A DNA stretch of 63,790 nt from positions 1 through 63,790 of the forward strand of contig JAHIYJ010000034.1 in the NCBI GenBank assembly GCA_018814825.1, in the 5' to 3' direction. Of this stretch, positions 38,572 through 55,145 are shown piece by piece; position 1 is the stretch's first letter; each line of letters opens with the position of its first letter. A program made the position numbers and the translations under genes. Under the pieces are notes generated by a model that was given only the letters and a program-made list of their open reading frames with translations, was not told the origin of the DNA and ran no database searches. Source of the DNA: Candidatus Omnitrophota bacterium. Lineage in GTDB: Bacteria; Omnitrophota; Gorgyraeia; Gorgyraeales; Gorgyraeaceae.

Positions 38572-39648
38572 TTACTCTATCAACTTAGCGAGTGAAAACA
38601 GCGGCATGAACATGGATATAACAATAAAACCTACGACAAGACCCATGAACACTACAAGTAGGGGCTCAAGAAGGGAGGTCAGTCCGCCTATGGCTACGTC
38701 GACCTCTTCCTCAAAGTTATCCGCTATCTGGATCAGCATCTTGTCCAACTGGCCTGTCTCTTCCCCGATATTCACCATCTTTACCACAAGAGGCGGAAAG
38801 GCCCTACTGGCCTCCATTGGACCCGATACGCTCTCGCCTTCCTTTATGCTGTCACGTACCTCAAGGACGGCGCGGGCTATAAACTCATTGCCTATGGTAT
38901 CCCTCACGGTTTCCAGGGCGTTTAATATAGGAACGCCGCTCGTCAGAAGCGTCCCGAGCGTCCTTGAGAACCTCGCTACACAAACCTGCTGTGTCAGGGC
39001 ACCTACCACAGGAATATGGAGCTTTATCTTATCCACCAACAGCCTCCTGCTAGGTTTCCTTATAATGAGCTTATATAAAAATATAATAGAAATTGGGATA
39101 AGTGGGATCAGGTACCATGCCTTTCTGATCAATTCACTTGTGGTTATAAGCACCTTTGTCGGCAAAGGCAGGGCACCTCCCAGCTCCGAAAACATATTCG
39201 TGAAAGTTGGAATCACGAACACCATGAGCATTATAAGTATCAATACAGCCACCAAAAGGACAAACGACGGATACATAAGCGCGGATTTTATCCTCTCCCT
39301 CAGTTTCTGATTTTTGTCGAGGAATTCGGAGAGACGCTTCAGTATACCTTCGAGCATGCCTCCAAGTTCCCCGGCCTTTATCATGTTAATATAGAATTCC
39401 GGGAATACTCGCGGAAAATGCGAAAGGGATTCGGAAAAATTAGTGCCGCTTTCAACCTCATCGACAAGCTGTCTTATTATATCTTTAAGCGCTCCTGATT
39501 CTAACTGGTCATACAGTGTCCTCAGCGCCTTCACGAGCGGCAGGCCCGCGGCTATAAGCGTGGATAATTGTCTGGTGAATACTACTAATGATTTTGTGCG
39601 GACCTTTTTTTTAAGGGTTAATACTGGGAGGTCTTTCAAAAGTTTCAT
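38572..39648 (-). CDS. Type II secretion/type IV pilus platform protein (GspF/PilC family)
   Basis: 358-aa ORF with two T2SSF repeats (FTRQLSTLIAAGLPLVKALRTL and FSRTLGTLLTSGVPILNALETV) and three TM segments. Confidence 0.85.
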   Translation of the reverse strand: MKLLKDLPVLTLKKKVRTKSLVVFTRQLSTLIAAGLPLVKALRTLYDQLESGALKDIIRQLVDEVESGTNFSESLSHFPRVFPEFYINMIKAGELGGMLEGILKRLSEFLDKNQKLRERIKSALMYPSFVLLVAVLILIMLMVFVIPTFTNMFSELGGALPLPTKVLITTSELIRKAWYLIPLIPISIIFLYKLIIRKPSRRLLVDKIKLHIPVVGALTQQVCVARFSRTLGTLLTSGVPILNALETVRDTIGNEFIARAVLEVRDSIKEGESVSGPMEASRAFPPLVVKMVNIGEETGQLDKMLIQIADNFEEEVDVAIGGLTSLLEPLLVVFMGLVVGFIVISMFMPLFSLAKLIE

Positions 39649-39651
39649 TGA

Positions 39652-40842
39652 TCATCGCTTGACAACAGCATCGTCTATTTCTATGATGAAACCCTGCTTA
39701 ACATCTTTTATATCAGCGGCTGAGATCCTGTCCCTGGTCTGTATAACCGCCAGGGAGCCTATCCGCAGGCTTCCTCTGTATACGTCAAAATTGCCCCCCG
39801 CATCAACGCCGTCCTGTTTACCAAGGTCTATCACTACAAAATTATGCTCCCTGTTAACGGTAACTATTCTTCCTTTAAACTCCGCCTGTCCGCTTATACG
39901 CTCAAGCGAACCCGGACGCACGGCTGATGCCTCCCGGCCCTCTCTCTGTAAAACTATCGGGGGCAAGTCTACCTCGGAGGGCGCGTGATATGCCTCCGCC
40001 CTCAATTCTTTCCCGCCATCAGCCTGTTCCGTAAGCGCGATTTTTAACTTATCAATCTCATGATCCCTGTATTCAAGCTCTCTCTCAAATCTCGACAGCT
40101 TAGACTGGACTTCTTCTTTCTCAGCCAGTAATTTAGCGACCTTATAAGAAGCGTCCTCAAGCTCGGCTAGTCTGTTTCTTAACAGGTCCCTTTCTATTTT
40201 TATATTCTCGGCTTCTTTCCTGCGCTGTTCTGCTCTGTCCTTCTCCTTCAAGAGATCCCTGCTCAGTATCTCAGCGACCCTGCTGGAATCCTCGAACTTC
40301 TCTTCCAAGGCCCTCCTTCCCTCTTCAAACTTTGAGAGAGTCATCTCCGCATCCATGTTCTCCGCCTTCAGCCTTTCTATCTCGGCGTATCGCGGCTCCA
40401 GAGATTCCTTCAGGCGCTTAAGCTCTACCTCCATGGCTATTTTTTCCTTTAATACATCCGCAAGGAAGTTGTCGGATCCCATTTCCTTGAGTTTTTTCTC
40501 AAGATAGAATTTTCCTTTTTTGACCCTGGCAAGTTCCTTGTCAAAATCATCCCTCTTTCTCAAAAACCTGGTGTATTTAGCCTCCAGATCCTCATTTTTG
40601 GAAGACAATATGTTAAATTCTTTCTTAGAGTTTTCCAGTTTTACCTTTATCTCTATGTTCTCCTTGTTCGCCGAGGCGAGTTTGCGGTTTAACTTATCCA
40701 CGCTGGTTTTGAAGAGCTGCTCCAGGCTCACATATTCGTCCAGCAGTCTTTCTTTCGCGACAAAAAACCATCCGGCGCTAAAACTGCTCAACACCACAAG
40801 GGCTACCAGTATCCATAGTATCGAGCGAAGGGTTTTATCCAC
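39652..40842 (-). CDS. N-terminally anchored coiled-coil protein with C-terminal beta-rich domain (unknown function)
   Basis: 396-aa ORF. TM is ILWILVALVVLSSFSAGWFFV, followed by about 250 aa of heptad-rich K/E/L sequence. The C-terminus is KGRIVTVNREHNFVVIDLGKQDGVDAGGNFDVYRGSLRIGSLAVIQT. 3-nt gap to gspF and 15-nt gap from the RND gene. Confidence 0.65.
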   Translation of the reverse strand: MDKTLRSILWILVALVVLSSFSAGWFFVAKERLLDEYVSLEQLFKTSVDKLNRKLASANKENIEIKVKLENSKKEFNILSSKNEDLEAKYTRFLRKRDDFDKELARVKKGKFYLEKKLKEMGSDNFLADVLKEKIAMEVELKRLKESLEPRYAEIERLKAENMDAEMTLSKFEEGRRALEEKFEDSSRVAEILSRDLLKEKDRAEQRRKEAENIKIERDLLRNRLAELEDASYKVAKLLAEKEEVQSKLSRFERELEYRDHEIDKLKIALTEQADGGKELRAEAYHAPSEVDLPPIVLQREGREASAVRPGSLERISGQAEFKGRIVTVNREHNFVVIDLGKQDGVDAGGNFDVYRGSLRIGSLAVIQTRDRISAADIKDVKQGFIIEIDDAVVKR

Positions 40843-40857: not shown

Positions 40858-43800
40858 TCAGGCTTCCGTGCGTTCCCGCGGCTTCTGTTTCAGTTTTATT
40901 ATACCATATATTATGTTACGGACAAACAATATTAATTCCTTTGGCTTTACAAAAACGAGCCTCATGTCCTCAAAGATCATATATATGCTGGGAACCAGCA
41001 ATAAGGTCATAACAGTTGAGGAAGCCATGCCCCCTATTACAGTAATAGCGAGCGGAGACCAGAGATTTGCTGATTCACTCCTGTCAAACGCCATAGGCAA
41101 AAGTCCAAGTATAGTGGTAGATGTTGTCATGGCTATAGGCCTAAGGCGGTCTTCGCCGGCCTCTATGAGAGATTTAAATAAATTATTGCTTCTCTTTCTT
41201 AAAAAGTTTATCCTGTCAACTAAAACGATCGCGTTATTGACCACGATGCCGGCAAGCATAATCGCGCCTATTATTACGCCTTGACTTATAGGTTTATGCG
41301 TAATCTTTAAAGCAAGGATCACGCCTATTACCGCAAGAGGCACTGATATCATTATAATGAAAGGCTGCTGATAGGATTCAAAGAGAGAGGCAAGAACCAA
41401 ATAGACAAGAAAAATAGTTATCCATAAAACCCCGGTCGGGAACGCCCATAATTCTTTTTCATTTTTAATGTTTCTCTCGTAATTCCCACCTATCCTGTAA
41501 TAATAATCCTTTGGGAACTCCATGTCAGAGAGATTCGCCCTAATCTTATTTACGGCCTTTATCAGCGAGGAGGTCGTTATCATGGCAGTTATATGTACCA
41601 CTCTCATTTTATTTTTTCTTATAATTTCACTTGCGCCTATCTGTGGAACAAAGTCAGCCACCTGTTCCAGCAATAAAGGCCCTCCATCATTCGAAAAAAG
41701 AACCAATTTCCTTAAGTCATCGAGTCTTTCTCTGTCCTCTTTTCTCAGCCTAGATACTGTTTCCACCTCTCTGGATTCAGTATGATATAATGTGGCTCTC
41801 AATCCTCTTATTTCAGAATGAAGAGTCTCGGCAATATCTTTGGTAGTCAGGCCATATAAACCTGCCTTTTCTTTGTCTACGGCAATGGCCCATTCAGGCC
41901 GACCGCTAATCCTTGACATCCTGATATCCTCAAAACCTTCTATAGTCCCCAGCCTGGTCGCGATAGAAACCGCCAATTCCTTCAGGACATCGTATTCATA
42001 GCCGTAAAGGTCAAGCTCTATTTCTTTCAGACCCTTCTCTTCTATCTCAGAAAAATATATAAACCCCCCCTTATATTTCCTTTCAACGGCTTTAGCTTTT
42101 TCACGGATATCATCTATGACTGTCTTTGTGTCATGTTTTCTTTGGACAAGGGGCTTAAGTTTCACGTATACTTTACTCGACCACGGCTCAACCCTTGAAG
42201 TAAATGTCTTAATCTCCTGTATATCAGCGAGCAGAAACTCGATCTCTTTTGCCATCTGATCCGTCACATCAAGTTTCGCTCCAGGTTCCAGCTCTACAAA
42301 GATGGTGAACCTGCCTTCTTCTGTACCGGCCATGAACTCCCTGTCTGTCTTAGAGCCGATAAAGAGCGCGATGACAAGGATAGCAAAGGCTATTGCCGCG
42401 CATAAATACCTTAACTTGAGACCTAACACAAGTAACTTTCTATAGTATGACCTCACCTGCTCTGATATGCTTTTTTTAAACATAGTCTTTTTATGTCTGC
42501 GCGGGTTTATCGGCTTGGCTTTTATGCGGTCAGAAAGCATAGGCACAATAGTCAAGGCTACAAACAGCGAGCTCAAAAGAGAATAAGTCACAGTCAGGGC
42601 AAGTCCGCTCCAGAGCATGCGGGTAGCCTTGTTAACAAACACAAACGGCAAAAATACTATTATAGTAGTTATGGTGGACGCCACTATGGCAAGGCCTACT
42701 TCAGAGGCACCATTTACTATGGCCTTTGTACAATCCTGTTTCCAGGCTGGGTCGGAAAAGCTGACCTTTTTTTTCTTTTTATCTATGTTATCCAGCACTA
42801 CTATGGAATTATCCACCAGCATGCCTATCCCAAGGGCAAGGCCGCTAAGGGTCATCACATTTATTGATATCTTGTGAAAATACATTGTAATAAACGTGGC
42901 CATGACGGATATGGGTATAGTAACCCCTATGATGGCTGTAACGCGCGGGTCTCTTAAAAATAACAACAGCACTAGGATAGCGAGCATCGCTCCATAAAGA
43001 AGCGAACTTTTTACGGCCTTTATAGCCTCTTCTATGGCATCTGACTGGTTTAAAGTGGCCTTTATGAATATATCCTTGTCTATATTTCTTTTCAGCTTTT
43101 TTATTTCCTCTTCTATATTGAACACAACCTGAATAGTATTAGCTGTCGATTCTTTCTGGATATAAATGGAAACCACAGGCTCTATATCAGTCCTCGCGTA
43201 GTTCGTGGGCTCCAAGAAAGAGTCTTTTACCTTCGCAATCTCTCCCATCTTTATAATCACTCCCTGAGGAGTAGCAATAAGTCCTATGTTCTTAATATCA
43301 TCGAGAGATTTATATTCGCCTATCACCCTGATAAGGTATTTATCTTTGGTCCTTTCTACATCACCTGCCAATAAATTGAGGTTATTGGCTCCAAGCGTAC
43401 CAACAACCTGCTCCATGGGAATACCGTACTGGTACAATTTATTTTTATCCACCTCGACAAGGATTTTTCTTTCACGGCCACCATACACGTCTACGTTAGC
43501 CACGCCCTCTACACGCAATATTCTTTCTTTTATCTGCTCATCCACGACCTTTCTCAGAATCTCAGGGGTATAGCCTTTACCTGTAACAGCCAGGACCAGT
43601 ACAGGTGTATCTGATTCCTTATACTGCGCTATTATTGGTTTTTCAATCTCCTTGGGAAGCTTATCTCTTATTTTTGAGAATTCCTCTCTCACCTCAAGCG
43701 CCGCAAAATCCATGTTGGTGCCGGGCTCAAACTCCAGCCACACCCTGGATTCCCCTGCTTTTGAAGTGGAATATATATTCTCCAGATAACTGACTGTACT

Positions 43801-44016
43801 GACCGCATCTTCCACATACCTAGTGACAAGCGATTCTACCTCTTCAGGAGGCATCCCCCCTCTTACGGCTATTATTATGCTTATATCCCCGTAAACTATA
43901 TTTGGCTTTAATTCAACGGGAAGCCGCAATAAAGACACCACCCCCACCAGCAATATGCCCAGAAATAGCATAAAGATAGTAACCGGGCGTTTAACAGAAA
44001 ACTCGGATAGGTTCAT
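40858..44016 (-). CDS. RND efflux permease (AcrB/MdtC-like), second pump of a tandem pair
   Basis: 1052-aa ORF with RND architecture: 12 TM and two large periplasmic loops. N-terminus is MNLSEFSVKRPVTIFMLFLGILLVGVVSL. Conserved TM4-like motif is GLALGIGMLVDNSIVVLDNI. Confidence 0.92.
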   Translation of the reverse strand: MNLSEFSVKRPVTIFMLFLGILLVGVVSLLRLPVELKPNIVYGDISIIIAVRGGMPPEEVESLVTRYVEDAVSTVSYLENIYSTSKAGESRVWLEFEPGTNMDFAALEVREEFSKIRDKLPKEIEKPIIAQYKESDTPVLVLAVTGKGYTPEILRKVVDEQIKERILRVEGVANVDVYGGRERKILVEVDKNKLYQYGIPMEQVVGTLGANNLNLLAGDVERTKDKYLIRVIGEYKSLDDIKNIGLIATPQGVIIKMGEIAKVKDSFLEPTNYARTDIEPVVSIYIQKESTANTIQVVFNIEEEIKKLKRNIDKDIFIKATLNQSDAIEEAIKAVKSSLLYGAMLAILVLLLFLRDPRVTAIIGVTIPISVMATFITMYFHKISINVMTLSGLALGIGMLVDNSIVVLDNIDKKKKKVSFSDPAWKQDCTKAIVNGASEVGLAIVASTITTIIVFLPFVFVNKATRMLWSGLALTVTYSLLSSLFVALTIVPMLSDRIKAKPINPRRHKKTMFKKSISEQVRSYYRKLLVLGLKLRYLCAAIAFAILVIALFIGSKTDREFMAGTEEGRFTIFVELEPGAKLDVTDQMAKEIEFLLADIQEIKTFTSRVEPWSSKVYVKLKPLVQRKHDTKTVIDDIREKAKAVERKYKGGFIYFSEIEEKGLKEIELDLYGYEYDVLKELAVSIATRLGTIEGFEDIRMSRISGRPEWAIAVDKEKAGLYGLTTKDIAETLHSEIRGLRATLYHTESREVETVSRLRKEDRERLDDLRKLVLFSNDGGPLLLEQVADFVPQIGASEIIRKNKMRVVHITAMITTSSLIKAVNKIRANLSDMEFPKDYYYRIGGNYERNIKNEKELWAFPTGVLWITIFLVYLVLASLFESYQQPFIIMISVPLAVIGVILALKITHKPISQGVIIGAIMLAGIVVNNAIVLVDRINFLRKRSNNLFKSLIEAGEDRLRPIAMTTSTTILGLLPMAFDRSESANLWSPLAITVIGGMASSTVMTLLLVPSIYMIFEDMRLVFVKPKELILFVRNIIYGIIKLKQKPRERTEA

Positions 44017-44020
44017 AAAA

Positions 44021-44093
44021 TCTAGCGGATAGCGGATAGCGGATAGCGGATAGAAAAATAAATACTATCCGCTAAACGCCATACGCTAAATCC
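44021..44093. repeat. Heptamer-built inverted-repeat element between the two RND genes
   Basis: The plus strand reads (TAGCGGA)x4 plus TAG (44023-44053), an 11-nt A/T spacer, the inverted CTATCCGCTA (44065-44074), then AACGCCATACGCTAAATCC. In mRNA sense it begins GGATTTAGCGTAT, like the 36378-36430 element. Confidence 0.75.
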
Positions 44094-44095: not shown

Positions 44096-47000
44096 TTATT
44101 CTTCTAACTTCAATTCATACCACCTTCCAGGCCCCAGAGGCCCTCGGGCAATAATAATGTTTTTATCCACAAGTTCTTTTAAGTCTCTTGCCGCAGTGGG
44201 TACAGATATCTTGAACAACTGGGAGTATTCCTTGCGTGTAATCTTTTTTTTCACCCGCAGATGTTCCAAAAACTGCTCCTGTCTCTTGTTCAGTTTTAGC
44301 GACAACCCCTCAGGCTTTTTCTCAGGAAGAGCTATCGCGGCAGGTGGTTCTATTTTTGGCTTTTCTGCTTTCGGCTCAGGTTTAACTGACTCAGGCAGCT
44401 GTATCGACAGAGGTTTCTCAGTTCGCAGCACAGGAACAGGTTTGGATTGGGGCATAACAAAAGCAGGCTTGGGCTTTAAGTCAGCTTTTGGCATAATAAC
44501 GCCAGCTACAATTGTAAATATACAAGGGATTACAAAAAGGGTCAGTATGGTGGAGATTGTAAGCCCTCCCATTACTGTTATGGCCATCGGGCTTTGTAGC
44601 TCTGATCCCTCGGCTATACCCATGGCTAAAGGCAAAAGACCCAATACTGTGGTCATGGTAGTCATGAGTATCGGCCTGAGTCTTGTCTTGCCAGACTCAA
44701 TTACAGCCTCCGTCAGGTCCATGCCCTGCGATCTCAGGTTATTGATAGTATCTATCAATATAATACCATTATTGACCACAATGCCCCCTAGTATTATGAC
44801 TCCAAGCATAACCACTACGCTTATAGGCGTATGTGTCACAAAAAGAGCTACAAGTACCCCCATAATAGATAACGGGACACTAAACATTATAATAAAAGGC
44901 TGCCACAGCGACTCAAACTGGGCGGCCATGATCATATAGACAAGGAGTATGGACAATAAAAGCGCGAATCTCAGGGATTGAAAGGACTCGTTCATCTGCT
45001 GACTCTCACCTGACAAAGCAAGTGTAATATCCTTTTCAGAGTCTTTTGAGGATAACTGAGAAATTTTTTCTCTTTCAATCCTATCTAACATCAGTTTTAC
45101 ATCCCTTATTACCTTATCAAGGGCCCTGTCAGATATATTGGCTGTGACAAGAACCACTCTCTGCTGATCAAGCCGTTTTATCTCGCTAGGACCGATACCC
45201 TGGGTTATATAAGCCACTTCGGAAAGCGGAACCTGTATATCCAGTGGAGAGTAAACAAGAACATTCCTGACCTGCGAAAGATTAGACCTGTCTTCTTTTC
45301 TAAGCCTGACTCTCACATCTATCTCTCTTCCCTCTTCTTTAAATTTAGTCGCGACCACTCCTTTTATAGCAGTATGAGCGGCTTGTGCAATTACGGCCGC
45401 GGAAAGGTTATAAAGAGCTGCCCTGTCTTTTATAATATTCACCTTTGTTTCAGGGGCAGGCTGCGTAAGGCTAGTACGTATTCCATAAATACCTTTAATG
45501 GTTAAAAGATCCTCTTTTATATATCCAGCTACTTTTTCTATCTCATCCAGTTTTTTTCCTTTTATTTCAATCACGATAGGCGCGGATCCCTGGAGCGCTG
45601 TTTTAAAAACGCTCTCCTGTACTACATACTCTATCTCAGCACCTCCCAGATTTAATTTACTAAACTTATCTTTTAATCTTTCTATGACTTTGGAGGTAGC
45701 CGGCCATTGTTTGCCTTTTTTCAGGGTCACTATGCTTTGAGCCTGATGAGACCCCATTGTCTCTAAGCCGCTGGCAAAGTCTTTCTTCTTACTGGAGCCT
45801 ATGCTTACAGCTACACCTTCAACTTCCTTTGTGCCAAAGAACACTTCTTCTATCTTTTTTACGACATTATCAGTTATATCCAGTTTAGTCCCGCTGGGCA
45901 TAGTCAGCTTCATGACAAATTCGCGCTGGTCCACCTTTGGCATAAATTCTTTATCTATGAAAAAGAAAAGTCCCATGCTCAGCACGTAAACTGAAAGCAC
46001 CGCTATTAAAAATATCCATTTAAACTTCAGAACTAACGGCACAATCCTAGCATATACAGACTCTAATCCAAATGTAAATTTTTTATTTTGGACCAAGGGC
46101 CGTTCTTTACTTAGTTTATCTGTTTTTATGGCTGCCAGGCGGGGAATCAGAGAAAGGGCTATAACCAATGAAGCAAGTAGAGAAAAAGTAACAGTAAAGG
46201 CCAGTTCTTTAAACAACTGGCCAGCCACACCTACAACAAATATCATCGGAAGAAAAACCGCAACAGTAGTAAGCGTTGAAGAAAATATCGCTCCTGACAT
46301 CTCGCTTGCGCCAGACTTACTGGCTTCTTTTATATCTTTTTTCTTCTGTAAATGACTATATATATTCTCTATTACTACTATGGCATTATCAACAAGCATG
46401 CCTACGCCCAGGGCTAGGCCCCCCAGAGAAAGCATATTCAATGTAATGCCGTTAAAATACATAAGGCTGAATGCCACCATAATTGACATAGGCATGGAAA
46501 AAGCCACTATCAGGGAAGCCTTTATGTTTCTTAAAAAAACGAATAACACCAGAAAAGCCAGGATCCCTCCCTGTATGGCCGCGTCCATTACTCCGCGTAT
46601 GGATTTTTTTATGAATATGGACTGGTCGTACACTATATTAACTTCCATCCCTGGCGGCAAGTCTCTTTTGATCTGGACCAGCTTATCTCTCACGTTCTGG
46701 GCCACGCGCATGGTATTAACACCCGCCTGTTTCTGCACAGAAATGGAGATATTCTCCTGCCCGTTATAGCGCGATATGCTGGTCTTCTCCTGAAACGTGT
46801 CCTTTATGTCAGCTATATCTTTTAAAAATATAAGGCGGGACTTTTTTTCACCTTGTTCTTCCTGAGGAATCTCAGGCACTTTATCTTCCTCGGATTTATC
46901 CTTACCGACAACGGTTTCTTTTATTTCCGGAACTACTTTAAACTCTCCCATTGTCCTTATAAGATATTCATAAAAATGCTCTTCTATAGTCCCGGCAGGA

Positions 47001-47638
47001 TAATTTAGATTTGATGACTTTAAAGAATCCACTACTTTAGTTATAGAGATTGAAGAAGCATGCAGCCTACCCCCATCCACAGATACAAGTATTTCTCTTT
47101 CAATGCCTCCCGCTATATTACAGGAAGCCACTCCCTCCACCTTTTCCAGTTCATCCTTTATAAATTTTCTTGAGAGCCTTAGCAGTTCTGATGGGGACTT
47201 TTCTCCTATTACGCTCAGCGTGATAACAGGCATCTCAAATGGGTTGAACTTCATCACAATAGGATCGCTTGACCCCAGAGGAAGCCTCTCTTTTATAAGA
47301 TCTATTTTTTCCCTGACGCCCAATGAGGCAAAATCCATATTAGCGCCCCATCCAAACTCAGCAGTAACTATGGAGACTCCTTCTTTAGAGACAGAGCTTA
47401 TGCGTTTCAGATTACTTACTGTTCCGACTGTTTCTTCTATTATCTTTGTTATTAGCGTTTCTACTTCTTCTGGAGCGGCGTTTTCATATGTCGTAACTAT
47501 AGTGAGCTGAGGGTAAGTAATGGAGGGGAAAAGTTCTCTGGGGAGACGCGTCAGGGAAATAAACCCTAATATCAGAACCCCGATAAAGAACATAGAGGTT
47601 GTAACAGGTCTGTTTACTGAAAATTCTGGAAGATTCAT
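44096..47638 (-). CDS. RND efflux permease (AcrB/MdtB-like) with ~75-aa Pro/Lys-rich linker and C-terminal winged-helix DNA-binding-like domain
   Basis: 1180-aa ORF. The RND core runs to about aa 1040 (GLALGVGMLVDNAIVVIENI, last TM ILTLFVIPCIFTIVAGVI). The linker is KPKPAFVMPQSKPVPVLRTEKPLSIQLPESVKPEPKAEKPKIEPPAAIALPEKKPEG. The tail is LNKRQEQFLEHLRVKKKITRKEYSQLFKISVPTAARDLKELVDKNIIIARGPLGPGRWYEL. Confidence 0.88.
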   Translation of the reverse strand: MNLPEFSVNRPVTTSMFFIGVLILGFISLTRLPRELFPSITYPQLTIVTTYENAAPEEVETLITKIIEETVGTVSNLKRISSVSKEGVSIVTAEFGWGANMDFASLGVREKIDLIKERLPLGSSDPIVMKFNPFEMPVITLSVIGEKSPSELLRLSRKFIKDELEKVEGVASCNIAGGIEREILVSVDGGRLHASSISITKVVDSLKSSNLNYPAGTIEEHFYEYLIRTMGEFKVVPEIKETVVGKDKSEEDKVPEIPQEEQGEKKSRLIFLKDIADIKDTFQEKTSISRYNGQENISISVQKQAGVNTMRVAQNVRDKLVQIKRDLPPGMEVNIVYDQSIFIKKSIRGVMDAAIQGGILAFLVLFVFLRNIKASLIVAFSMPMSIMVAFSLMYFNGITLNMLSLGGLALGVGMLVDNAIVVIENIYSHLQKKKDIKEASKSGASEMSGAIFSSTLTTVAVFLPMIFVVGVAGQLFKELAFTVTFSLLASLVIALSLIPRLAAIKTDKLSKERPLVQNKKFTFGLESVYARIVPLVLKFKWIFLIAVLSVYVLSMGLFFFIDKEFMPKVDQREFVMKLTMPSGTKLDITDNVVKKIEEVFFGTKEVEGVAVSIGSSKKKDFASGLETMGSHQAQSIVTLKKGKQWPATSKVIERLKDKFSKLNLGGAEIEYVVQESVFKTALQGSAPIVIEIKGKKLDEIEKVAGYIKEDLLTIKGIYGIRTSLTQPAPETKVNIIKDRAALYNLSAAVIAQAAHTAIKGVVATKFKEEGREIDVRVRLRKEDRSNLSQVRNVLVYSPLDIQVPLSEVAYITQGIGPSEIKRLDQQRVVLVTANISDRALDKVIRDVKLMLDRIEREKISQLSSKDSEKDITLALSGESQQMNESFQSLRFALLLSILLVYMIMAAQFESLWQPFIIMFSVPLSIMGVLVALFVTHTPISVVVMLGVIILGGIVVNNGIILIDTINNLRSQGMDLTEAVIESGKTRLRPILMTTMTTVLGLLPLAMGIAEGSELQSPMAITVMGGLTISTILTLFVIPCIFTIVAGVIMPKADLKPKPAFVMPQSKPVPVLRTEKPLSIQLPESVKPEPKAEKPKIEPPAAIALPEKKPEGLSLKLNKRQEQFLEHLRVKKKITRKEYSQLFKISVPTAARDLKELVDKNIIIARGPLGPGRWYELKLEE

Positions 47639-47653: not shown

Positions 47654-48880
47654 TTATTTGGTGTTTTCTTGAACTTCTATAATTTTCACAGACATTCCAT
47701 CTTTTAATTCCTGGGGGGTATCAACAACTATTATCTCGTCCTCATAGACACCGGAGGATAGCACGGTAAAATCTGTGGTCACATAAGACACCTGGACTGT
47801 CTTGGAAGAAACTGTATTGTTTTTATCAACAATAAAAATTTTATAACCTTCTTCTACCTTATTGAGGCTTATGCTAGGCACAACTAGAGCGTCCTGAAAC
47901 TCAGCGACAGTAATCATGGCCCTGGCAAACATGCCAGGCAATAATAAAGCGTTTGAGTTTTCTATCCCCACTCTAATCGTAAGGGTCCTGGATTTCCCTT
48001 CTATAAGAGGAAAGACATTATCGACTGTCCCAAAAAAATCAGTGCCAGGATATGAATCCACCTTGACTTTTACTTCCTGACCGAGCGCTATCTTGTCTAT
48101 ATCTCTTTCCACAATACCCAGCTCCACAAATACCCGCATCGTATCATAAAGAGTAGCTATTTTATTATTCGGTGTAACAAATTCCCCTATCTCGGCATCC
48201 CTTGAACCTAGAACTCCGTCCCGCGGCGCGCATAGATCTGTTTTTTTAAACTCTGACTCTACTGACTTAAGCTCCACCTCGACTGATTCAGCCTGCAATC
48301 TAGCTGATTCCGCTTCCAGCTCCACTTCTTCCAGCTTCACTTTTATAATGCCTCCTATATCATAAAGCCTCTTGTGTATCTCCAGCTTCTTTTCTGCCGC
48401 AAGCGCTTGTACTTTTGCTGTTTCTAATTTACTTTTTGAGTAATCGACTTTCAGTTTAGCGTCTTTTTTATCTAGGTTTGCTATCAGATCTCCTTTATAT
48501 ATAATGTCCCCCTCTCTGAAATTAATAGACTCTATGACTCCATTGATCTCAAACTTCAGCTTTATTTCAAGCTCGCCTTTTACCGTACCCATTACAGGTA
48601 ATTCATCTTTAAAATCCGTGCGCGATACCCTAAAACACCTGACTGGTATGGCTTCAGTCCCTGGCCTAACGCCTTCAGGCTGAGCACCAGGTAAGGCGTC
48701 TGATTGCATATCTTCGGCTGTAAAGACACCCTTGGGCATTTCTCCCTGGACATCTTTTATAGCCGCCTTACCAGCTAGCTTGGTGGGTTTTTTCTTAAAC
48801 AGGGTAACGCCCCACACGATTAAAAAAGCCACCACCCATAAAAGTATAAAGCCTATAAGAAGGGTTTTTGATTTTTTCAT
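47654..48880 (-). CDS. RND periplasmic adaptor (membrane fusion protein, HlyD family)
   Basis: 408-aa ORF. N-terminal anchor, lipoyl/hairpin/beta-barrel order (GDIIYKGDLIANLD, coiled hairpin, GEFVTPNNKIATLYD, GMFARAMITV). Confidence 0.88.
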   Translation of the reverse strand: MKKSKTLLIGFILLWVVAFLIVWGVTLFKKKPTKLAGKAAIKDVQGEMPKGVFTAEDMQSDALPGAQPEGVRPGTEAIPVRCFRVSRTDFKDELPVMGTVKGELEIKLKFEINGVIESINFREGDIIYKGDLIANLDKKDAKLKVDYSKSKLETAKVQALAAEKKLEIHKRLYDIGGIIKVKLEEVELEAESARLQAESVEVELKSVESEFKKTDLCAPRDGVLGSRDAEIGEFVTPNNKIATLYDTMRVFVELGIVERDIDKIALGQEVKVKVDSYPGTDFFGTVDNVFPLIEGKSRTLTIRVGIENSNALLLPGMFARAMITVAEFQDALVVPSISLNKVEEGYKIFIVDKNNTVSSKTVQVSYVTTDFTVLSSGVYEDEIIVVDTPQELKDGMSVKIIEVQENTK

Positions 48881-48899: not shown

Positions 48900-50735
48900 T
48901 TATTTCATGTTTGCCAACATAAAACCTTTGTTATCCAGAAACAGCGCGTATCCCGTAGCCTTGTTTAATTTAGCCAAGGCCTGATATAAACTTCCTATTG
49001 ACTCTATGTAAAATAATTTTTCATCAGAAAGGCTCATGTAAGCTTTTATGAGTTCTGAGATTGGTATTTCATTCAATTCTGTCCGCGCCTTCGTGATTTT
49101 AAGCTCCTCTTCTCTGTATTTAATCTTGTCGAGATTAGTATTAACCTGGACAAGGCCTTTTTTGTAATTTAAATAAGATTCTTTTGCCTCTTTAATGACC
49201 AATTCCCTGGCTTTCTGCAAATCTTCTTTTGCTTTCTTAAACCCTATTTCCGCGGATTTCCGCTCAGAAAACGCCTGCATACCGTCAAGAAGGCCTAATT
49301 CCACGGCCTTACTAATTGATGATGTCCTTGAAGTCTGGCCATGTTTTTCGCTGGTCTCCTCCTTTGTATAGGAAGTGGATAGCGTATTTGACCCTAAAGG
49401 CTTGGAAACCTTTAGGCCAATAAACCAATCCTTATCCATATTAAGCGTCTCGGTTTCATACGCCCCGCCTGACTTTCCATAAGAACCCGTAAGGTCAACT
49501 TTTATCCGGTCTTTGCTTTCTGATATCTTCTTTTCATACTCGTTAAACTCCACCATATATTCCTTGGCTTTTAGATCAGGCCTGTTTCTAAAAGCCATCT
49601 CCAGGTAATCCTCAAATTCGAAGTCTAAATAAATAGGTTTCAGCTCAACAAGATTAATATCTGTATCTATAACAGATTCTAATTTATCAGGGTTTTCAAT
49701 ACCCATTGCCTGCGCCAATGTCAACTTGGCCATCTCCATGTCATTATTGCTTGAAGTCATTTGATAATTAATCTGTTTTATCTGAGATTCAACCTGTAAA
49801 AATTCCGACCTTGTAGTCAGGCCCATATCAAATCGCTTTTTAGCTATATCAAAAATTTTCTGTGTCTGATCCAAAAGGGTTTTCTGTGTTTCGAGATTAA
49901 GCTTGCTTGCCAGATAGGCATAAAATCCTGTTTCCACTTCTATCCGTATTTCCTGAAGGGCCTTATCGTAATTATGCCTTGATGCATTTACATTACTGAT
50001 AGCCTGTTCAACCGCGTATTTAAGCCTCCCCGCATAGTACAGAGGGTATTCAAACTTAAGTTTATATTCCTTATCAGTAAAATCCTGGGTCGAACCAGTG
50101 GTCTGCCCTATTGTCTCCATATAATTCAAACTTGATGCCGGGAAAAGCGCTCGGTGCGCCTCTCTGAGCTTAAGCCTTGCCAATTCCACCTCTTCAGACG
50201 CAATCTTTGCGGCCATCTGATTTTCCAGAGCAATATCAACTGCGTCATTAATATTATATAAATCTAATTTTTCTCCTTCAATTTTGTTCTCAGTGGTTCT
50301 GTAAATCTTAGCCTTCTTATCTGACATCTGTTCCGGTGTCTTAACCTGAGCCTTTAAATCAAATATCACAGGCACCTCTATCCATAAATCTTCTTCCCCT
50401 AATGCCTCAGGAAAAGGTTGAAACCTGTCGTATTTCCAAACCGCATTGAGACACAAATTATCAAGCTCCTGGCTGCCTGACGACTCTGACACATAGGCAT
50501 CTTTCACCTCACCCCATGGAGAAAGAAGCAGCTTTATTCTTATTTCTCCTCTGGAATCACGCAAAACAGATTCGCTGGGTGTCAAAATGTCTGCGTAAAT
50601 ATCTCTTGATATTTCAAGAATATAATTTGTGATAATATCCGAAGGATGAGGATAGGCAAATGATATGGTTTGTGAAAATGCTGTAATTATAATAATTACG
50701 ATGAGATATAATAATATGATACGCTTTATAAACAT
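48900..50735 (-). CDS. TolC-family outer membrane factor with N-terminal TonB C-terminal-like domain
   Basis: 611-aa ORF. After the signal peptide comes GEIRIKLLLSPWGEVKDAYVSESSGSQELDNLCLNAVWKYDRFQPFPEALGEEDLWIEVPVIFDL (TonB_C pattern). About aa 160-611 has the duplicated OMF coiled/barrel repeats (AVDIALENQMAAKIASEEVELARLKLREA, LTTRSEFLQVESQIKQ). Confidence 0.85.
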   Translation of the reverse strand: MFIKRIILLYLIVIIIITAFSQTISFAYPHPSDIITNYILEISRDIYADILTPSESVLRDSRGEIRIKLLLSPWGEVKDAYVSESSGSQELDNLCLNAVWKYDRFQPFPEALGEEDLWIEVPVIFDLKAQVKTPEQMSDKKAKIYRTTENKIEGEKLDLYNINDAVDIALENQMAAKIASEEVELARLKLREAHRALFPASSLNYMETIGQTTGSTQDFTDKEYKLKFEYPLYYAGRLKYAVEQAISNVNASRHNYDKALQEIRIEVETGFYAYLASKLNLETQKTLLDQTQKIFDIAKKRFDMGLTTRSEFLQVESQIKQINYQMTSSNNDMEMAKLTLAQAMGIENPDKLESVIDTDINLVELKPIYLDFEFEDYLEMAFRNRPDLKAKEYMVEFNEYEKKISESKDRIKVDLTGSYGKSGGAYETETLNMDKDWFIGLKVSKPLGSNTLSTSYTKEETSEKHGQTSRTSSISKAVELGLLDGMQAFSERKSAEIGFKKAKEDLQKARELVIKEAKESYLNYKKGLVQVNTNLDKIKYREEELKITKARTELNEIPISELIKAYMSLSDEKLFYIESIGSLYQALAKLNKATGYALFLDNKGFMLANMK

Positions 50736-50756
50736 AACTTCTCCTAGTAAGGGAGA

Positions 50757-50785
50757 AGTATATCATACTATTATTATTTTGTCAA
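50757..50785 (-). promoter_or_regulatory. Sigma70 promoter for the RND efflux operon
   Basis: Minus-strand reading: TTGACA (50780-50785), 17-nt spacer AAATAATAATAGTATGA, TATACT (50757-50762). It lies about 21 nt upstream of ATG 50735, which has SD AGGAGAAG. Confidence 0.6.
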
Positions 50786-50818
50786 TAGTAGGTAAGTGAT
50801 ACGGTGTTGATACGGTTA

Positions 50819-50936
50819 CCCCGCACCTTTTTATATTCAGGCATTTTCTTAAAAAGATTGAATGGTTAAAAGGTGCGGGGTAAGTTCGGACAGATGGGTT
50901 ATGAAAATCAAAGATTTTCGTAACCCATGTCCTCAC
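50819..50936. repeat. Structured intergenic repeat, copy A (two hairpins), abutting the ROK gene stop codon
   Basis: Plus-strand reading. Hairpin 1 is CCCCGCACCTTTT, a 36-nt loop, AAAAGGTGCGGGG. Then TAAGTTC. Hairpin 2 is GGAC AG ATGGGTTATGAAAATC AAAG ATTTTCGTAACCCAT GTCC, followed by TCAC. By manual alignment, 64 of the last 69 nt are identical to copy B. Confidence 0.85.
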
Positions 50937-52178
50937 TTAAGCCTTTATAAAGACCTCACGTATTACTATGCTCGCGGCACCCAGAGCAACAGCGTCTTTC
51001 CCAAGCTGAGCTGGTATAATCTTTACTATATTTGCAGGCTCTTCAAATGCCCATTTCCTTACTGTCCTTCTAAGAGGTTCGAGGAACAGGCTGCCTGCTT
51101 TCTCAACTCCGCCCCCTATTATAACTATCTCAGGATTAAAGAGGTTCACCAGATACGCTATACGCACGCCAAGATTAACAGCAGCGTCTTCTAGGAGCTC
51201 TATGGCAAGCGTATCACCGGCCTTTGCCGCGTCTATGATATGGTTCACTGCCATCTTATCCAGGTCGTTGCCGCAGATTTGAGGTATAGTAGATTCTATG
51301 CCCTCTTCCTTTATAAGTTTCTGCGCCCTGCTTATAAGCCCAAGATCAAGGCCCATAGGCAATAATAACGATAGGTTCTTTGACATCTTAAGGTAATCGC
51401 CGTTCCTGGGATAATTTATGCGAATCTCTCCTGCTGACCCGCTCGCTCCGCAATATATACCGCCTTTTATTATGATACCTGAGCCCACATCAGAATACAT
51501 ATAGATAACATCTTCGACATCCATGGGAAGAGCGTGCATTTTTTCGCCAAAAGCCGCGAATGTGGCATCGTTCCCCAGAAAAGAGGGGATCTCGAATCTT
51601 TCCTCTATCATGCCTTTTATGGACACATAACTTGTGCGTATCCCGTTTTTGCTTGAATCCCTTACAGTGCCAAGGCCCTTGTCTATAACACCTCCTATTC
51701 CTATACCAACACCTCTCACCTTTTCTTTTATGACTCCTTTTTTACCCATCAGTTCTTCTATCATATCAAGAGACTGATCTATGATCCTATCCATGGAGTC
51801 TTTTGCCCTTAACTTGTCTATTTTCGATATAATCTTGCCCGATAGATCCGTAACCACTCCTATCATCGTAGCGCCTTCAGAACCCGTATGCCCCAGATCA
51901 AGGCCTATGGCGTAACCATGCTCCTCATTCAATTTGACCAGGGTAGGCTTCCTACCCCCGGAAGACGCTTCCATGCCCCCTTCTATGACAAGCTTCTCGT
52001 TTATATAGGTATTGACATAATTTGATACGGTTACTATGTTCAGGTCTGTGATCTTGGAGATATCAGCCCTTGTGATAGGCCCGTTTCTTCGTATAAACTC
52101 CAATATTGAGAAATTTTTTTTCTCGTGGTCCGAAAGCAAACTTCCCTCTAACGCCCGGTTTCTATTGGTAATTGGCAT
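50937..52178 (-). CDS. ROK-family transcriptional regulator (NagC/XylR-like)
   Basis: 413-aa ORF with SD AAGGAGG. The N-terminal wHTH is ILEFIRRNGPITRADISKITDLNIVTVSNYVNTYI. ROK sugar-kinase fold motifs are AIGLDLG, GIGIGGVID and GASGSAGEI. The Cys-rich zinc motif is not evident. Confidence 0.88.
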   Translation of the reverse strand: MPITNRNRALEGSLLSDHEKKNFSILEFIRRNGPITRADISKITDLNIVTVSNYVNTYINEKLVIEGGMEASSGGRKPTLVKLNEEHGYAIGLDLGHTGSEGATMIGVVTDLSGKIISKIDKLRAKDSMDRIIDQSLDMIEELMGKKGVIKEKVRGVGIGIGGVIDKGLGTVRDSSKNGIRTSYVSIKGMIEERFEIPSFLGNDATFAAFGEKMHALPMDVEDVIYMYSDVGSGIIIKGGIYCGASGSAGEIRINYPRNGDYLKMSKNLSLLLPMGLDLGLISRAQKLIKEEGIESTIPQICGNDLDKMAVNHIIDAAKAGDTLAIELLEDAAVNLGVRIAYLVNLFNPEIVIIGGGVEKAGSLFLEPLRRTVRKWAFEEPANIVKIIPAQLGKDAVALGAASIVIREVFIKA

Positions 52179-52367: not shown

Positions 52368-55145
52368 CTAGAATATTCCGTGATAGTAAATACGCAGTAT
52401 GTGCTGCGTATCGAGTGTCGGATAAAAATCCCCGTAAGGGCTCGCTGTCGCGCCCCATACAGGGGAAACAACGCTTCCCTCTCCAAACTGTATCACCAGA
52501 AGCCCGTATTCAGTGACATTGCAATTGAACTCCATGAACACGTTGTGGTGATTCTCGTATTTCAGGTCTCCGGTCGTGTTCAGGCGATACATATTATACA
52601 GCTTGGAAAATGTGTATTTGAGGAACCCCGTAAGCCTTGGGTTAAACTTATATTTTAAAGTAGTCCCTATATGGTTTATATTGTCATCTATACCTGAGGC
52701 AAACTTGAAGTCGTTTTTAGTATAGTCAAAGTCTATCCCTAGTTTTTCGGTAGGCCGCAGGGAGATGCCGGCCCTGAATATATTGAACCTGTCATAAGGC
52801 GGAAGGTCAAACCAACCCTGACTGTAAAGCTGGGCAATCTCATCCCTGTATACCTTGCCTTCTATAGTCTCGGTCGTAAAATATGTGCTGTTTAAGAGCC
52901 CGTTCGGATGGTTGCCTGTCCCAAACCTGTAATCATTTGTATTTTCATAGATACCAAACAAGCTTATCCATTCCTCAGGCGCGTATTCCAGGCCAAAGGA
53001 ATACGTGGAAAGCGATGGGTCATTGCCGTCTTCGATCGCCGTATTCTTGAGGAATTCTCCTGTATCAGAATCATACTGTATAGGGTCTATGCCGCCTTTT
53101 GTTTTCGGTAGATCATGGTATATATACAAAAGCTTTGATGTCCACCTGGGATTAATCCTCAGGGTATTCTCTTCCCTGAAAACCCCTTCCACGTATTTAT
53201 GCTCGGAATCCCTTACATACCTGCAATCTATCAGGTTATCCATCTTGCTGTCAAAGGCGTCCCTGGAATCCAGCCTGAAATTAATGGCGTCCCTACCTAT
53301 ATCAACGCCATCCCCTATCCTGAAAGGCTCCACGTCCTCATATTTCAACGACGTGCCGCCCCATGCGTCCTGCTCAAGAGGTTTTTTAAAATGTATGTGC
53401 CTTCCCCAGTGCATATCTTTTCTTGTTTCCCTGTAATTCGCGAGACCGGGGTCAAACGTCTCATCCATATGCGTTATGGCTAACTTGGCGTTACCGAGTC
53501 CTGTCTCTTTTTTAACGGCAAGGTGCCCTGCTGTTCCGTTTTTCTCAGTCTTATAGGAACTTGTTCTGTCATATTCGCTCTTACTCATCGCGACCTGGCC
53601 TACTATATTAGTGGAAGGGTTCAGGTCATAACTCGCGTCAACGCCCAATACATTATTGTAGGAATCTGTGTTATTGTCATCATCATAACCTATCCTGAAC
53701 GTGTCTATGGTCCCTATCATAAGGCTGTCTGTCAACTGCGTCTTTGTCCTCATTGCGCCGGGAATAGCGTTTACCTCCCCATAATCGTCCCACAGGCCCT
53801 TGGGACTAGCCACGGTCATTGACATGTCCGTATTGCCCAGCAGATTACCTTGAAAGGCCACTCCGCGCAGGGCAGTAAGCCTTTTCAGGTCGCTGTCCCG
53901 CGTGAAAAAGGTCAAATCGTCTGACCATTCTCCTCTCCAGAAGTCATCCGGGGTCGTCCCTGTATTAATATGCCCTGGTTTCCACTCGTCCAACCAGGGG
54001 CTCGGTTCCCAGTATATGTGGTGGTTAGAAAGACCCATAGGGTCATCGGAAGAAAGCGCCTGGTCCTCAAGGCCATAAGGAAATACCCTGAACTTGTAAT
54101 CCTCCTGATTAAAATCAAACCACAGCTCTCTTACTGGCTGAAATGTAAAATCTATGTCTTTCTCAGGGATCGTAAAAGTATTCCCATAGAGATCCGAGAC
54201 AGTAGTGGAAGGCATCTTGCCGTCTGAAACTTTATATTCAGATGTTGCTATAGATGCGCCTGTATCGAGAGTATATAAAATTTCGTTTATAGTGCTCCTG
54301 GTGCCAGACCAATATTTCAATTCCATCTCGACCCTATCTCCGCCGCCATTTCTTGTAACAGTAAATTTATCTGTCTTACCAACAAAACTCCACGGGTCCA
54401 CAGTTATATCTGAATGGAGATTAAAACCCTCTGCATCCTTATTCGTATCAAATGTCACCTTAAATCGATCATACACCCTTGTATCAAATGTATTTGTCTT
54501 GGGGAAATTATGATCTATCATCCTGAAGTTACGCTCATTATAGTCGGCGTTAGCCTTTTTCCAAATAACGTCTTCTGTCGTCACGCCTACCGACATCTTG
54601 TATTCACCCTTTATCCTTCCGGGGGCAATCTTCTCATTCAGCGCGTCAGTAACAACCTTTATCTTGTCTTCGCTATACCCCGGGTCTTCAGGAATCCTAC
54701 CAGGCCTATAGTCTTTATATTCATAGGAGTCTTCATATGTGTTTGTATCAGGTTCATAAGGCTCTATTTCGGCGTAAACCCTGCTCTCATTAAAATCCGA
54801 TTCCCTCTTCAGGTTATTCTCATCCTGGTAAAAATCTAGCTTGCCGCGCGCGCGCATGTTCAGCTCAGCATTCACCAAGTCAAGATAACCCTGGGCATCA
54901 TCATTCATGGGATCAACCTTTAGGGCTCTTTCCAAGATACTCTTTGCCTCATGAAGCTTTCCTGCGTGGTAATAATCCACACCCCTGCCATAAAGCCCGA
55001 AACTCTCGGCAATATTCTGTTCCTGGGCATACAAGGCCGCCAGGACACAAGGACACAAAGACACAAGGACACAAAGACACAAGGACACAAAGACACAACA
55101 ATATTGGTGACTTGGTGACTTGGTGACTTGGTGACTCCTGCGCAT
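52368..55145 (-). CDS. Large secreted protein: N-terminal TPR segment plus C-terminal beta-barrel-like outer-membrane domain
   Basis: The track ORF runs to 55157 (929 aa). The ATG at 55143-55145 has GGAG 6 nt upstream and lies 2 nt after the upstream stop. The signal peptide is encoded by tandem repeats and ends AALYA/QEQ. A TPR-like segment is YYHAGKLHEAKSILERALKVDPMNDDAQ. The Y/D/N-rich body has alternating strands and ends LRIYYHGIF. Confidence 0.75.
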   Translation of the reverse strand: MRRSHQVTKSPSHQYCCVFVSLCLCVLVSLCPCVLAALYAQEQNIAESFGLYGRGVDYYHAGKLHEAKSILERALKVDPMNDDAQGYLDLVNAELNMRARGKLDFYQDENNLKRESDFNESRVYAEIEPYEPDTNTYEDSYEYKDYRPGRIPEDPGYSEDKIKVVTDALNEKIAPGRIKGEYKMSVGVTTEDVIWKKANADYNERNFRMIDHNFPKTNTFDTRVYDRFKVTFDTNKDAEGFNLHSDITVDPWSFVGKTDKFTVTRNGGGDRVEMELKYWSGTRSTINEILYTLDTGASIATSEYKVSDGKMPSTTVSDLYGNTFTIPEKDIDFTFQPVRELWFDFNQEDYKFRVFPYGLEDQALSSDDPMGLSNHHIYWEPSPWLDEWKPGHINTGTTPDDFWRGEWSDDLTFFTRDSDLKRLTALRGVAFQGNLLGNTDMSMTVASPKGLWDDYGEVNAIPGAMRTKTQLTDSLMIGTIDTFRIGYDDDNNTDSYNNVLGVDASYDLNPSTNIVGQVAMSKSEYDRTSSYKTEKNGTAGHLAVKKETGLGNAKLAITHMDETFDPGLANYRETRKDMHWGRHIHFKKPLEQDAWGGTSLKYEDVEPFRIGDGVDIGRDAINFRLDSRDAFDSKMDNLIDCRYVRDSEHKYVEGVFREENTLRINPRWTSKLLYIYHDLPKTKGGIDPIQYDSDTGEFLKNTAIEDGNDPSLSTYSFGLEYAPEEWISLFGIYENTNDYRFGTGNHPNGLLNSTYFTTETIEGKVYRDEIAQLYSQGWFDLPPYDRFNIFRAGISLRPTEKLGIDFDYTKNDFKFASGIDDNINHIGTTLKYKFNPRLTGFLKYTFSKLYNMYRLNTTGDLKYENHHNVFMEFNCNVTEYGLLVIQFGEGSVVSPVWGATASPYGDFYPTLDTQHILRIYYHGIF
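55043..55136. repeat. Two adjacent 8-nt tandem repeat arrays inside the 5' end of the OMP gene
   Basis: The plus strand has seven units of GGACACAA/AGACACAA (55043-55098), a 6-nt spacer, then four units of TGGTGACT (55105-55136). In mRNA sense these are (AGTCACCA)x4 followed by (TTGTGTCY)x7. They encode RSHQVTKSPSHQ and CCVFVSLCLCVLVSLCPCVL. Confidence 0.9.

Follow-up and report, generated by a model that had tools for sequence, protein, structure and literature searches.

An RND efflux permease with a C-terminal winged helix-turn-helix domain, conserved across the Omnitrophota

Resistance-nodulation-division (RND) efflux pumps have been intensively studied and, to our knowledge, all those described are controlled by separate soluble or two-component regulators. 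In a stretch of 63,790 nucleotides from Candidatus Omnitrophota bacterium (assembly GCA_018814825.1, contig JAHIYJ010000034.1, positions 1-63,790, forward strand; the whole of it is called the window here), an RND permease gene, which we name RND1, does not stop after its last transmembrane (TM) helix and runs on through a linker into a small domain of the winged helix-turn-helix (wHTH) type. Such a fusion hints at a pump with a physical tie to DNA or to the control of genes, and the locus raises the question of whether the joint between pump and tail is real and what the tail may do. The parts are known, namely the RND pump, the wHTH of Fic- and AlbA_2-type proteins and the concept of a membrane-tethered DNA-binding domain; their combination, its conservation throughout a phylum and its interchangeability at the operon level appear to be undescribed. 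The initial annotation of the locus knew of no described example, and no description of an RND-HTH fusion was found in the full-text literature either, which is absence of evidence only, as the coverage of that literature was incomplete. In public records, full-length fusions are named 'efflux RND transporter permease subunit' or 'HAE1 family exporter', and routine annotation of the former kind hides the extra domain.

A fusion that is real and phylum-wide

RND1 is encoded by a single uninterrupted frame of 1180 aa (44096..47638, minus strand), and the tail sequence on which the initial annotation was based was found verbatim in it. Residues 5-1044 match Pfam ACR_tran with 807.2 bits (cut-off 28) over profile positions 3-1020 of 1021, and by this full-length match the protein is an RND superfamily permease (HAE-1-like). 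Its TM12 ends at about residue 1048. The linker and the module behind it, measured at 65 and 63 aa, are near enough to the ~75 and ~65 aa first estimated. The score of residues 1119-1163 with Pfam PF08220 HTH_DeoR (profile positions 1-45 of 57) is 25.9 bits for the whole protein and 29.4 bits for the tail alone, both above the gathering cut-off of 21. Since both termini of 12-TM RND permeases are cytoplasmic, as is known from the AcrB structures, the tail of RND1 is expected to lie in the cytoplasm.

When the tail alone was used in a database search, only 17 short proteins of 52-122 aa were obtained, as would be the case if a missed stop codon, a frameshift or a chimeric assembly had joined a small HTH gene to an RND gene. 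However, these short proteins have Pro/Glu/Lys-rich leaders too, and their frames extend without interruption as far as the contig edge, a second RND gene coming next; in one of them (L002), the downstream genes are the same as in the window. As free-standing HTH genes they were therefore mostly rejected, being contig-edge fragments. We then turn to the distribution of the tail, for which one genome per GTDB species was scanned with a back-translated pattern. The tail is encoded in at least 126 species genomes, and almost all of these bear the label Omnitrophota. A few carry the label Planctomycetia, Patescibacteria or 'bacterium', but their RND bodies cluster with the Omnitrophota ones, and Ca. 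Undivivens, another carrier of the tail, itself belongs to the Omnitrophota. All genomes with the fusion are metagenome-assembled or single-amplified genomes of uncultured organisms.

Eighty loci were retrieved in this survey (numbered with the prefix L). Body, linker and HTH lie in a single frame in 67 of them, with body identities to the window protein of 44-85%, while nine have an in-frame partial RND body truncated at the contig end, two have the contig end inside the linker and one (L042) is interrupted by a scaffold N-gap. An in-frame TAG right before the HTH was seen in one locus of the 80 only (L066, 5995-5997 of JBFWKV010000018.1), and could be a sequencing error, a true split or a read-through codon. 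This TAG and the low-coverage contig of L085 (2.3x), which is probably chimeric, are the remaining points in favour of an artefact. Against them stand the full-length loci, all 67 of which keep the fusion in frame, in independent assemblies from different studies and assemblers. Moreover, the HTH is better conserved than the pump body in 51 of these 67 orthologs, and in those with less than 60% body identity, the mean identity amounts to 64.1% for the HTH versus 52.5% for the body. The single frame in 67 loci and the conservation of the HTH indicate that the fusion is ancient and under selection. An assembly artefact or frameshift is thus rejected and, as an explanation, effectively refuted: neither a stop or frameshift that splits off the tail nor a tail unique to this assembly, the two findings that would have spoken against the initial annotation, was encountered. 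These results confirm that the fusion in RND1 is real and phylum-wide.

The tail, its linker and its other carriers

A search of PDB sequences with the tail gave weak matches only (E >= 0.014; ST1889 and CRP), so that a fold search was needed. In the AlphaFold2 model, run with an 18-sequence alignment (pLDDT 83.2), the elements follow the order H1, short strand, H2, H3 and beta-hairpin (H9-21, H26-32, H37-49, E53-56 and E64-67), which, as far as a predicted structure goes, is a canonical wHTH. Foldseek matched it in the PDB to DNA-binding wHTHs with TM-scores of 0.72-0.81, including SrnR, MarR, CadC, NolR and AspA, and several of the wHTH matches were solved on operator DNA; winged-helix domains of ESCRT-II and of ribosomal proteins were also among the matches. 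The E-values were modest (~6e-3) because the domain is small (~65 residues). Together with the HTH_DeoR score above the cut-off, the AlphaFold and Foldseek check proposed for the tail bears out its assignment as a wHTH, and a tail devoid of such a fold can be set aside. RND1 is no DeoR-family regulator, since its HTH is C-terminal and no DeoR_C domain was found in the Pfam scan; the UlaR model reaches 16.7 bits with it versus a cut-off of 244.

The initial annotation had also likened the module to the C-terminal wHTH of Fic- and AlbA_2-type regulators, and this relationship holds. Among the top-ranked Foldseek matches, the highest sequence identity (32%, TM-score 0.72-0.76) is that of the C-terminal domain of Coxiella burnetii Fic2 (8cil), a class II Fic protein, and the AlbA_2-HATPase_c_4 protein 3lmm was matched as well. 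An exhaustive search of 1.84 billion representatives with the tail profile gave 2039 matches with E <= 1e-3, of which 108 had E <= 1e-10. The strongest matches come from RND fragments and from full-length RND proteins (1181-1509 aa), and the weaker ones are C-terminal HTHs of AlbA_2/HATPase_c_4-type proteins, whose tails are the nearest sequence relatives outside the RND proteins and the Omnitrophota. The top-scoring match, P0018, is a protein of 2918 aa that combines a signal-like N-terminus with two AlbA_2/HATPase_c_4 modules and four copies of the wHTH. In the Fic and AlbA_2 proteins as in RND1, the same small domain stands at the extreme C-terminus of a larger protein, and the pattern LNxRQ...ITxxEY...S..TAxRDLxxL...G..Y is common to their tails. 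However, they are soluble enzymes that hold the domain on a rigid helix, whereas the carrier in the window is a polytopic membrane transporter with its tail on a long leash, and the wing of the RND1 type has an invariant GPLGPGRWY signature of its own.

The HTH is basic in every one of 67 orthologs (net charge +3 to +12, mean +5.5), with +8 in the window. Seventeen columns of its alignment are invariant, including the core of the recognition helix, P-T-A-x-R-D-L, and the wing, G-P-x-x-x-G-R-x-Y. From its positive charge and its DNA-associated relatives, the wHTH is predicted to bind DNA. No second copy of it was found within the 64-kb window.

The linker is much less constrained. In the window, 15 Pro, 11 Lys and 7 Glu were present in the 68 residues counted, and over the 67 orthologs its composition averages 17.5% P, 15.3% E, 11.1% K and 9.1% A. 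Its length ranges from 30 to 328 aa (median 81), some of the longest linkers hold coiled-coil stretches, and no sequence motif is conserved among the orthologs, as both composition and length drift. By its sequence, the linker would be a disordered cytoplasmic leash and not a structured coupling element. An internal start after TM12 that would give a soluble HTH was considered and rejected, because most orthologs have no Met and no Shine-Dalgarno-like sequence at the junction, and neither is conserved there.

Fused to the pump or not, the wHTH is part of this efflux system, since two loci of one lineage (L086 and L087) carry the same HTH on a separate operon protein where RND1 has no tail. Their gene order is RND1(no tail)-RND2-[TM-CC-HTH]-OMF-MFP, where RND2 is a second RND permease, CC a coiled coil, OMF the outer-membrane factor and MFP the membrane fusion protein or periplasmic adaptor. 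In L086, the RND1 ortholog (46% identity) ends right after TM12 and is followed by the RND2 ortholog and then by a gene for a protein (P0078) in which a TM helix at the N-terminus and a long coiled coil precede the same wHTH; public annotation knows this protein as 'DeoR family transcriptional regulator' only. A TonB-OEP factor and the adaptor are encoded downstream of it. By its place in the operon, the coiled-coil protein of the window (39652..40842) is the counterpart of this HTH-bearing protein. Homology between the window protein and P0075/P0078, the proteins that join a coiled coil to the HTH, was rejected, as there is no significant similarity and only operon position and architecture agree. 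A third and rare carrier is found on one metagenomic contig, L084 (41-391), where a genuine small gene directly upstream of an RND gene encodes a stand-alone protein of 116 aa with a lipoprotein-like signal or anchor (MNTKKILFWALLLLCGSLILSC), a hydrophobic N-terminus and then the same wHTH. If it were a true exported lipoprotein, its HTH would be periplasmic, at odds with DNA binding.

In all three forms, the RND1 fusions, the TM-coiled-coil variants and the stand-alone protein, a long spacer separates the HTH from its membrane anchor. The presence of the HTH on a different operon protein means that a covalent link to TM12 is not required, which counts against a read-out of the transport cycle. 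The idea, put forward in the initial annotation, that the tail may couple the efflux state to transcription is therefore unlikely, given a disordered linker of 30-328 aa and an HTH that can sit on another protein.

The efflux operon and its promoter

In the window, the genes run in the order ROK/HTH regulator, OMF, adaptor, RND1-HTH, RND2, coiled-coil protein, type II secretion system protein F (T2SSF) and two pseudopilin-like genes (Table 1). As in tripartite RND operons, adaptor and outer-membrane factor are encoded immediately upstream of RND1, and a second RND gene directly follows the tailed permease in nearly every locus with enough downstream DNA. The fusion occurs in two layouts, OMF-MFP-RND1(HTH)-RND2-CC-T2SSF and RND1(HTH)-RND2-MFP. 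In the latter, a conserved ORF of 260-275 aa lies on the same strand ~45-290 nt upstream of RND1 (L034, L038, L041, L044, L048, L050, L052, L070 and L073), and no Pfam match was found for it in the three examples scanned (L048, L052 and L070).

Table 1. Features of the efflux locus in the window (amino acid numbers are those of RND1 or of the protein named)
Feature	Position	Strand	Basis or remark
ROK-family regulator, N-terminal HTH, directly upstream of the operon	50937..52178	-	Pfam ROK 122 bits + HTH_24
Candidate operator, direct repeat ACCGTATCA-N2-ACCGTATCA, 11-bp period, abutting the -35 box	50797..50816	-	
Operon promoter TTGACA-N17-TATACT, extended -10 TG	50757..50785	-	11/12 consensus positions; conserved in L088-L092
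Outer-membrane factor (TolC-like), first operon gene	48900..50735	-	OEP 147 bits + TonB_C aa 53-127
Extra ACCRTATCA half-site, ~70 nt inside the OMF coding region	50661..50669	-	position kept in orthologs
Periplasmic adaptor (membrane fusion protein)	47654..48880	-	HlyD_D23/HlyD_3; TIGR01730 RND_mfp 215.6 bits (cut-off 94.9)
RND permease body of RND1, aa 1-1048, 12-TM AcrB/MdtB-like	44495..47638	-	ACR_tran; MdtB/MuxB best NCBIfam equivalog
Pro/Lys/Glu-rich low-complexity linker of RND1, aa 1049-1113 (65 aa)	44300..44494	-	composition
wHTH of RND1, aa 1114-1176 (63 aa)	44111..44299	-	HTH_DeoR, AlphaFold2, Foldseek, charge, invariant columns
Recognition helix of the RND1 wHTH, aa 1146-1158	44165-44203	-	
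Wing of the RND1 wHTH	aa 1162-1176	-	
Last four RND1 residues (KLEE) and stop codon	44096..44110	-	stop = 44096-44098
RND2, tail-less paralogous RND permease, 1052 aa, directly downstream of RND1	40858..44016	-	ACR_tran 754.8 bits; MdtC 393.6 bits
Membrane-anchored coiled-coil protein, 396 aa, after RND2	39652..40842	-	N-terminal hydrophobic helix, then coiled coil

The stoichiometry of E. coli MdtBC is B2C, and we know of no described MdtB that carries a linker and a wHTH. MdtBC forms a heterotrimer and is the textbook case of such an RND pump (PMC8277102). The window pair resembles MdtB/MdtC (MuxB/MuxC) in its tandem paralogous RND genes with full 12-TM ACR_tran bodies, served by one adaptor and one outer-membrane factor, and the best NCBIfam equivalogs are MdtB/MuxB (NF007798, 393.9 bits versus a cut-off of 1584) for RND1 and MdtC (NF007905, 393.6 bits versus 1774) for RND2. 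Because these scores are far under the equivalog cut-offs, the two proteins resemble MdtBC but are not orthologs of it. They differ further in the ~130 aa of linker and wHTH on RND1, in the N-terminal TonB_C of the outer-membrane factor and in an operon that continues into the coiled-coil protein and T2SS-like genes. A TonB C-terminal domain on an outer-membrane channel is in itself unusual; the same architecture, with TonB_C N-terminal on a TolC-like factor, was found in more than 100 Omnitrophota protein clusters, annotated variously 'TonB family protein' or 'TolC family protein'. The operon runs on (36421-40842, minus strand) into the coiled-coil protein, the T2SS protein F homolog and the two pseudopilin-like genes (N_methyl, T2SSJ). 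Many species keep RND2, CC and T2SSF next to each other, which suggests that the pump is functionally linked to a type II/type IV pilus-like apparatus.

The initial annotation had proposed the promoter region 50736-50830 for a binding test of the tail, and both a promoter and a direct-repeat motif in this region proved to be conserved when the window was compared with five orthologous operon starts (L088-L092, OMF identity 61-78%). While the spacers have otherwise diverged, AACC(G/A)TATCA directly upstream of the promoter is invariant in all six sequences, mostly as an 11-bp-periodic direct repeat. In the 902 kb of sequence analysed, nine tandem ACCRTATCA sites were counted versus 0-1 in shuffled sequence, and 46 half-sites versus ~14 expected; five of the ten half-sites of the window fall between 50661 and 52023. 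The half-site ~60-100 nt into the OMF coding region is kept in all orthologs (2561 in L088 and L089, 2567 in L090 and L091, 2597 in L092). In a distant clade (L029, L076, L077 and L082), half-sites cluster just 3' of RND2, and there is no ROK gene in the locus. Among the closer relatives, the ROK gene adjoins the operon in four of five (L088-L091) and is one gene away in L092. Direct repeats on one helix face beside the -35 box suit tandem wHTH binding, and an invariant recognition helix together with an invariant motif would be the look expected of a conserved regulator-operator pair. We nevertheless take the ACCRTATCA motif, as a sequence pattern, for a lead and a candidate operator, not for evidence of binding by the tail.

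A second tandem ACCRTATCA-N2-ACCRTATCA of the window (63657-63676, minus strand) overlaps the 3' end of tRNA-Glu(CTC) (63673-63750) upstream of an ORF for a small hydrophobic membrane protein of 81 aa (63360-63605), and may mark another member of the same regulon. Between the ROK stop codon and the direct repeats lies a perfect 13-bp inverted repeat, CCCCGCACCTTTT...AAAAGGTGCGGGG (50821-50879, minus strand, loop ~33 nt), which is not conserved in the five orthologous spacers and is probably the ROK terminator. The window also contains intergenic tandem repeats of 7-8 nt, namely TAGCGGA x4.4 (44023-44079), TAGCGTA x3.4 (36378-36428), AGCGTAT x4.6 (59457-59493) and ACAAGGAC x8.5 (55031-55136). 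The first two arrays face an inverted copy, so that a long periodic hairpin could form, and the same arrangement is seen in orthologous RND1-RND2 spacers with other units (CAGATAAC in L004, CAGAGGT/CAGAAGA in L012, GTGTCAAG in L063 and GGTAAAC in L062). These elements could be terminators or elements like repetitive extragenic palindromes. The array with its inverted copy in the RND1-RND2 spacer (44023-44079) was rejected as an operator, because similar arrays occur elsewhere in the window and the unit changes in orthologous spacers while the recognition helix stays invariant.

What the tail may do

The explanation that we favour, although tentatively, is that the tail of RND1 is a membrane-tethered DNA-binding regulator that acts on the promoter of its operon and a few other sites; that it binds DNA, what its target is and how expression would respond are inferences. 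RND1 is one of the two permeases in a tripartite efflux system like that of MdtB/MdtC, and its wHTH, on a disordered leash, would bind DNA while anchored to the inner membrane, as a local regulator with a logic like that of ToxR or CadC. Its targets would include the promoter of its own efflux operon, most plausibly the ACCRTATCA direct repeats at the -35 box. In this way, every new pump would bring with it a set amount of regulator, and the locus would be kept close to the site where its product is inserted into the membrane. If the pump were an RND1(2)-RND2 heterotrimer like MdtB2C, it would present two HTH tails per pump, which would suit a two-copy repeat. We favour this explanation because of the HTH_DeoR score above the cut-off, the wHTH fold, the DNA-bound structural matches and the basic charge, because the tail of Fic2, the closest solved relative by sequence, associates with DNA, and because the fusion is conserved in frame with an HTH better conserved than the body. 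It is also favoured because the HTH belongs to the same operon type when RND1 is tail-less, and because the invariant helix pairs with an invariant, enriched promoter motif that occurs near RND2 in the ROK-less clade too.

Systems that work in this manner are ToxR, CadC and TcpP, which likewise have a cytoplasmic wHTH on a membrane anchor; like them, the tail could contact DNA only at the membrane. The sites of ToxR-type wHTHs are direct repeats that lie upstream of the -35 box, and the candidate operator in the window is laid out in the same way. However, theirs is an N-terminal wHTH of the OmpR/PhoB type on a single TM helix with a periplasmic sensor, whereas that of the window is C-terminal, of the DeoR/Fic type, and anchored by a 12-TM pump or, elsewhere, by a TM-coiled-coil protein. 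RND1 lies outside the ToxR-like class, as no Trans_reg_C match was obtained in the Pfam scan; with no sequence relationship, the analogy is one of mechanism only.

Several observations weigh against a regulator of defined sites. Small residues abound in the recognition helix, SVPTAARDL, whose TAxRDL core also occurs in unrelated Fic and AlbA_2 tails. In C. burnetii Fic2, the wHTH is necessary and sufficient for nuclear localisation, and DNA binding, measured on generic double-stranded oligonucleotides of 20-60 bp with a dissociation constant of ~0.1-0.2 uM, drives dimerisation and activity (PMC10628234). In the same study, deletion of the HTH left the DNA affinity of the very basic Fic2 unreduced (PMC10628234). 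By analogy, these results and the make-up of the helix favour a low sequence specificity, and the 30-328 aa spread of the linker suggests tethering more than precise positioning. In addition, the ROK regulator is the conventional candidate for the ACCRTATCA sites and could equally well bind them, and the loci analysed are centred on this efflux system, which inflates the association with the motif (in part a sampling effect). The boldest form of the proposal, in which the phylum hard-wired a sequence-specific transcription factor domain onto an envelope-spanning pump and two wHTHs of an RND1(2)-RND2 heterotrimer dock on the repeats of their own promoter and on a small regulon, is graded as unlikely. 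If true, it would mean a gene held at the membrane complex that it encodes, with pump copy number feeding back directly on transcription, and a new class of polytopic-transporter transcription factor.

The same Fic2 data, where the wHTH is a module for DNA association and localisation, can be read in favour of a non-specific nucleoid tether: in very small cells, low-specificity DNA binding would attach the pump or its coiled-coil partner to the nucleoid, or the nucleoid to the envelope, with no specific transcriptional role implied. A long, disordered linker of very variable length, at times a coiled coil, is what a leash would look like, the operon can place the HTH module on a different membrane anchor, and a helix of mostly small residues whose core is shared by unrelated proteins also speaks for this reading. 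Such a tether leaves unexplained why the HTH is confined to this efflux system, with no other copy in the window, and the invariant helix and the invariant promoter motif fit specific binding at least as well, so that we regard it as possible but somewhat unlikely. A role without DNA is quite doubtful. In that case, the tail would be a plug-on regulatory or protein-interaction domain, of the kind that other transporters carry as CBS, PAS or UspA fusions, and would either recruit a partner from the cytoplasm or influence the assembly or activity of the pump. C-terminal regulatory domains are indeed common on transporters (PMC10710835), and winged helices also make protein-protein contacts, as those of ESCRT-II and the ribosomal proteins among the Foldseek matches remind us. 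The tail shares with transporter-fused CBS, CNBD, PAS, UspA and EIIA-like domains the logic of a small cytoplasmic add-on, but those domains bind small ligands or become phosphorylated and act on the transporter itself, and the review that covers them has no DNA-binding class and no RND pumps among the carriers (PMC10710835). The domain of RND1, by contrast, passes the HTH_DeoR model and is uniformly basic, its best structural matches are DNA-bound regulators and its closest sequence relatives the DNA-associated Fic/AlbA_2 tails, and a disordered linker of 30-328 aa would be a poor conduit for allosteric control of the pump.

Finally, a protease might cut the linker under some condition and free a soluble wHTH repressor or activator, as in the regulated proteolysis of membrane-bound transcription factors of the SREBP or RsiW type. 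A long exposed linker is an easy protease substrate, and the stop before the HTH in L066 and the small separate HTH gene of L084 show that the HTH can occur apart from the RND polypeptide. However, the linker has no conserved motif that could serve as a cleavage site, its composition and length drifting freely, no protease gene is conserved in the operon, and both L084 and the operon-encoded variants retain a hydrophobic anchor, a free soluble form being essentially never encoded. Release of the regulator is thus very improbable.

If the favoured explanation of a tethered regulator is true, RND1 would be the first pump that carries its own nucleic-acid-binding module, and the membrane-integrated DNA-binding proteins known from ToxR and CadC would be extended to polytopic transporters. 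Although the organisms are uncultured, an in vitro test is feasible, since both the protein fragment and the candidate DNA site are defined. The fusion bears on regulation and on contacts between nucleoid and envelope in the ultra-small, genome-reduced Omnitrophota.

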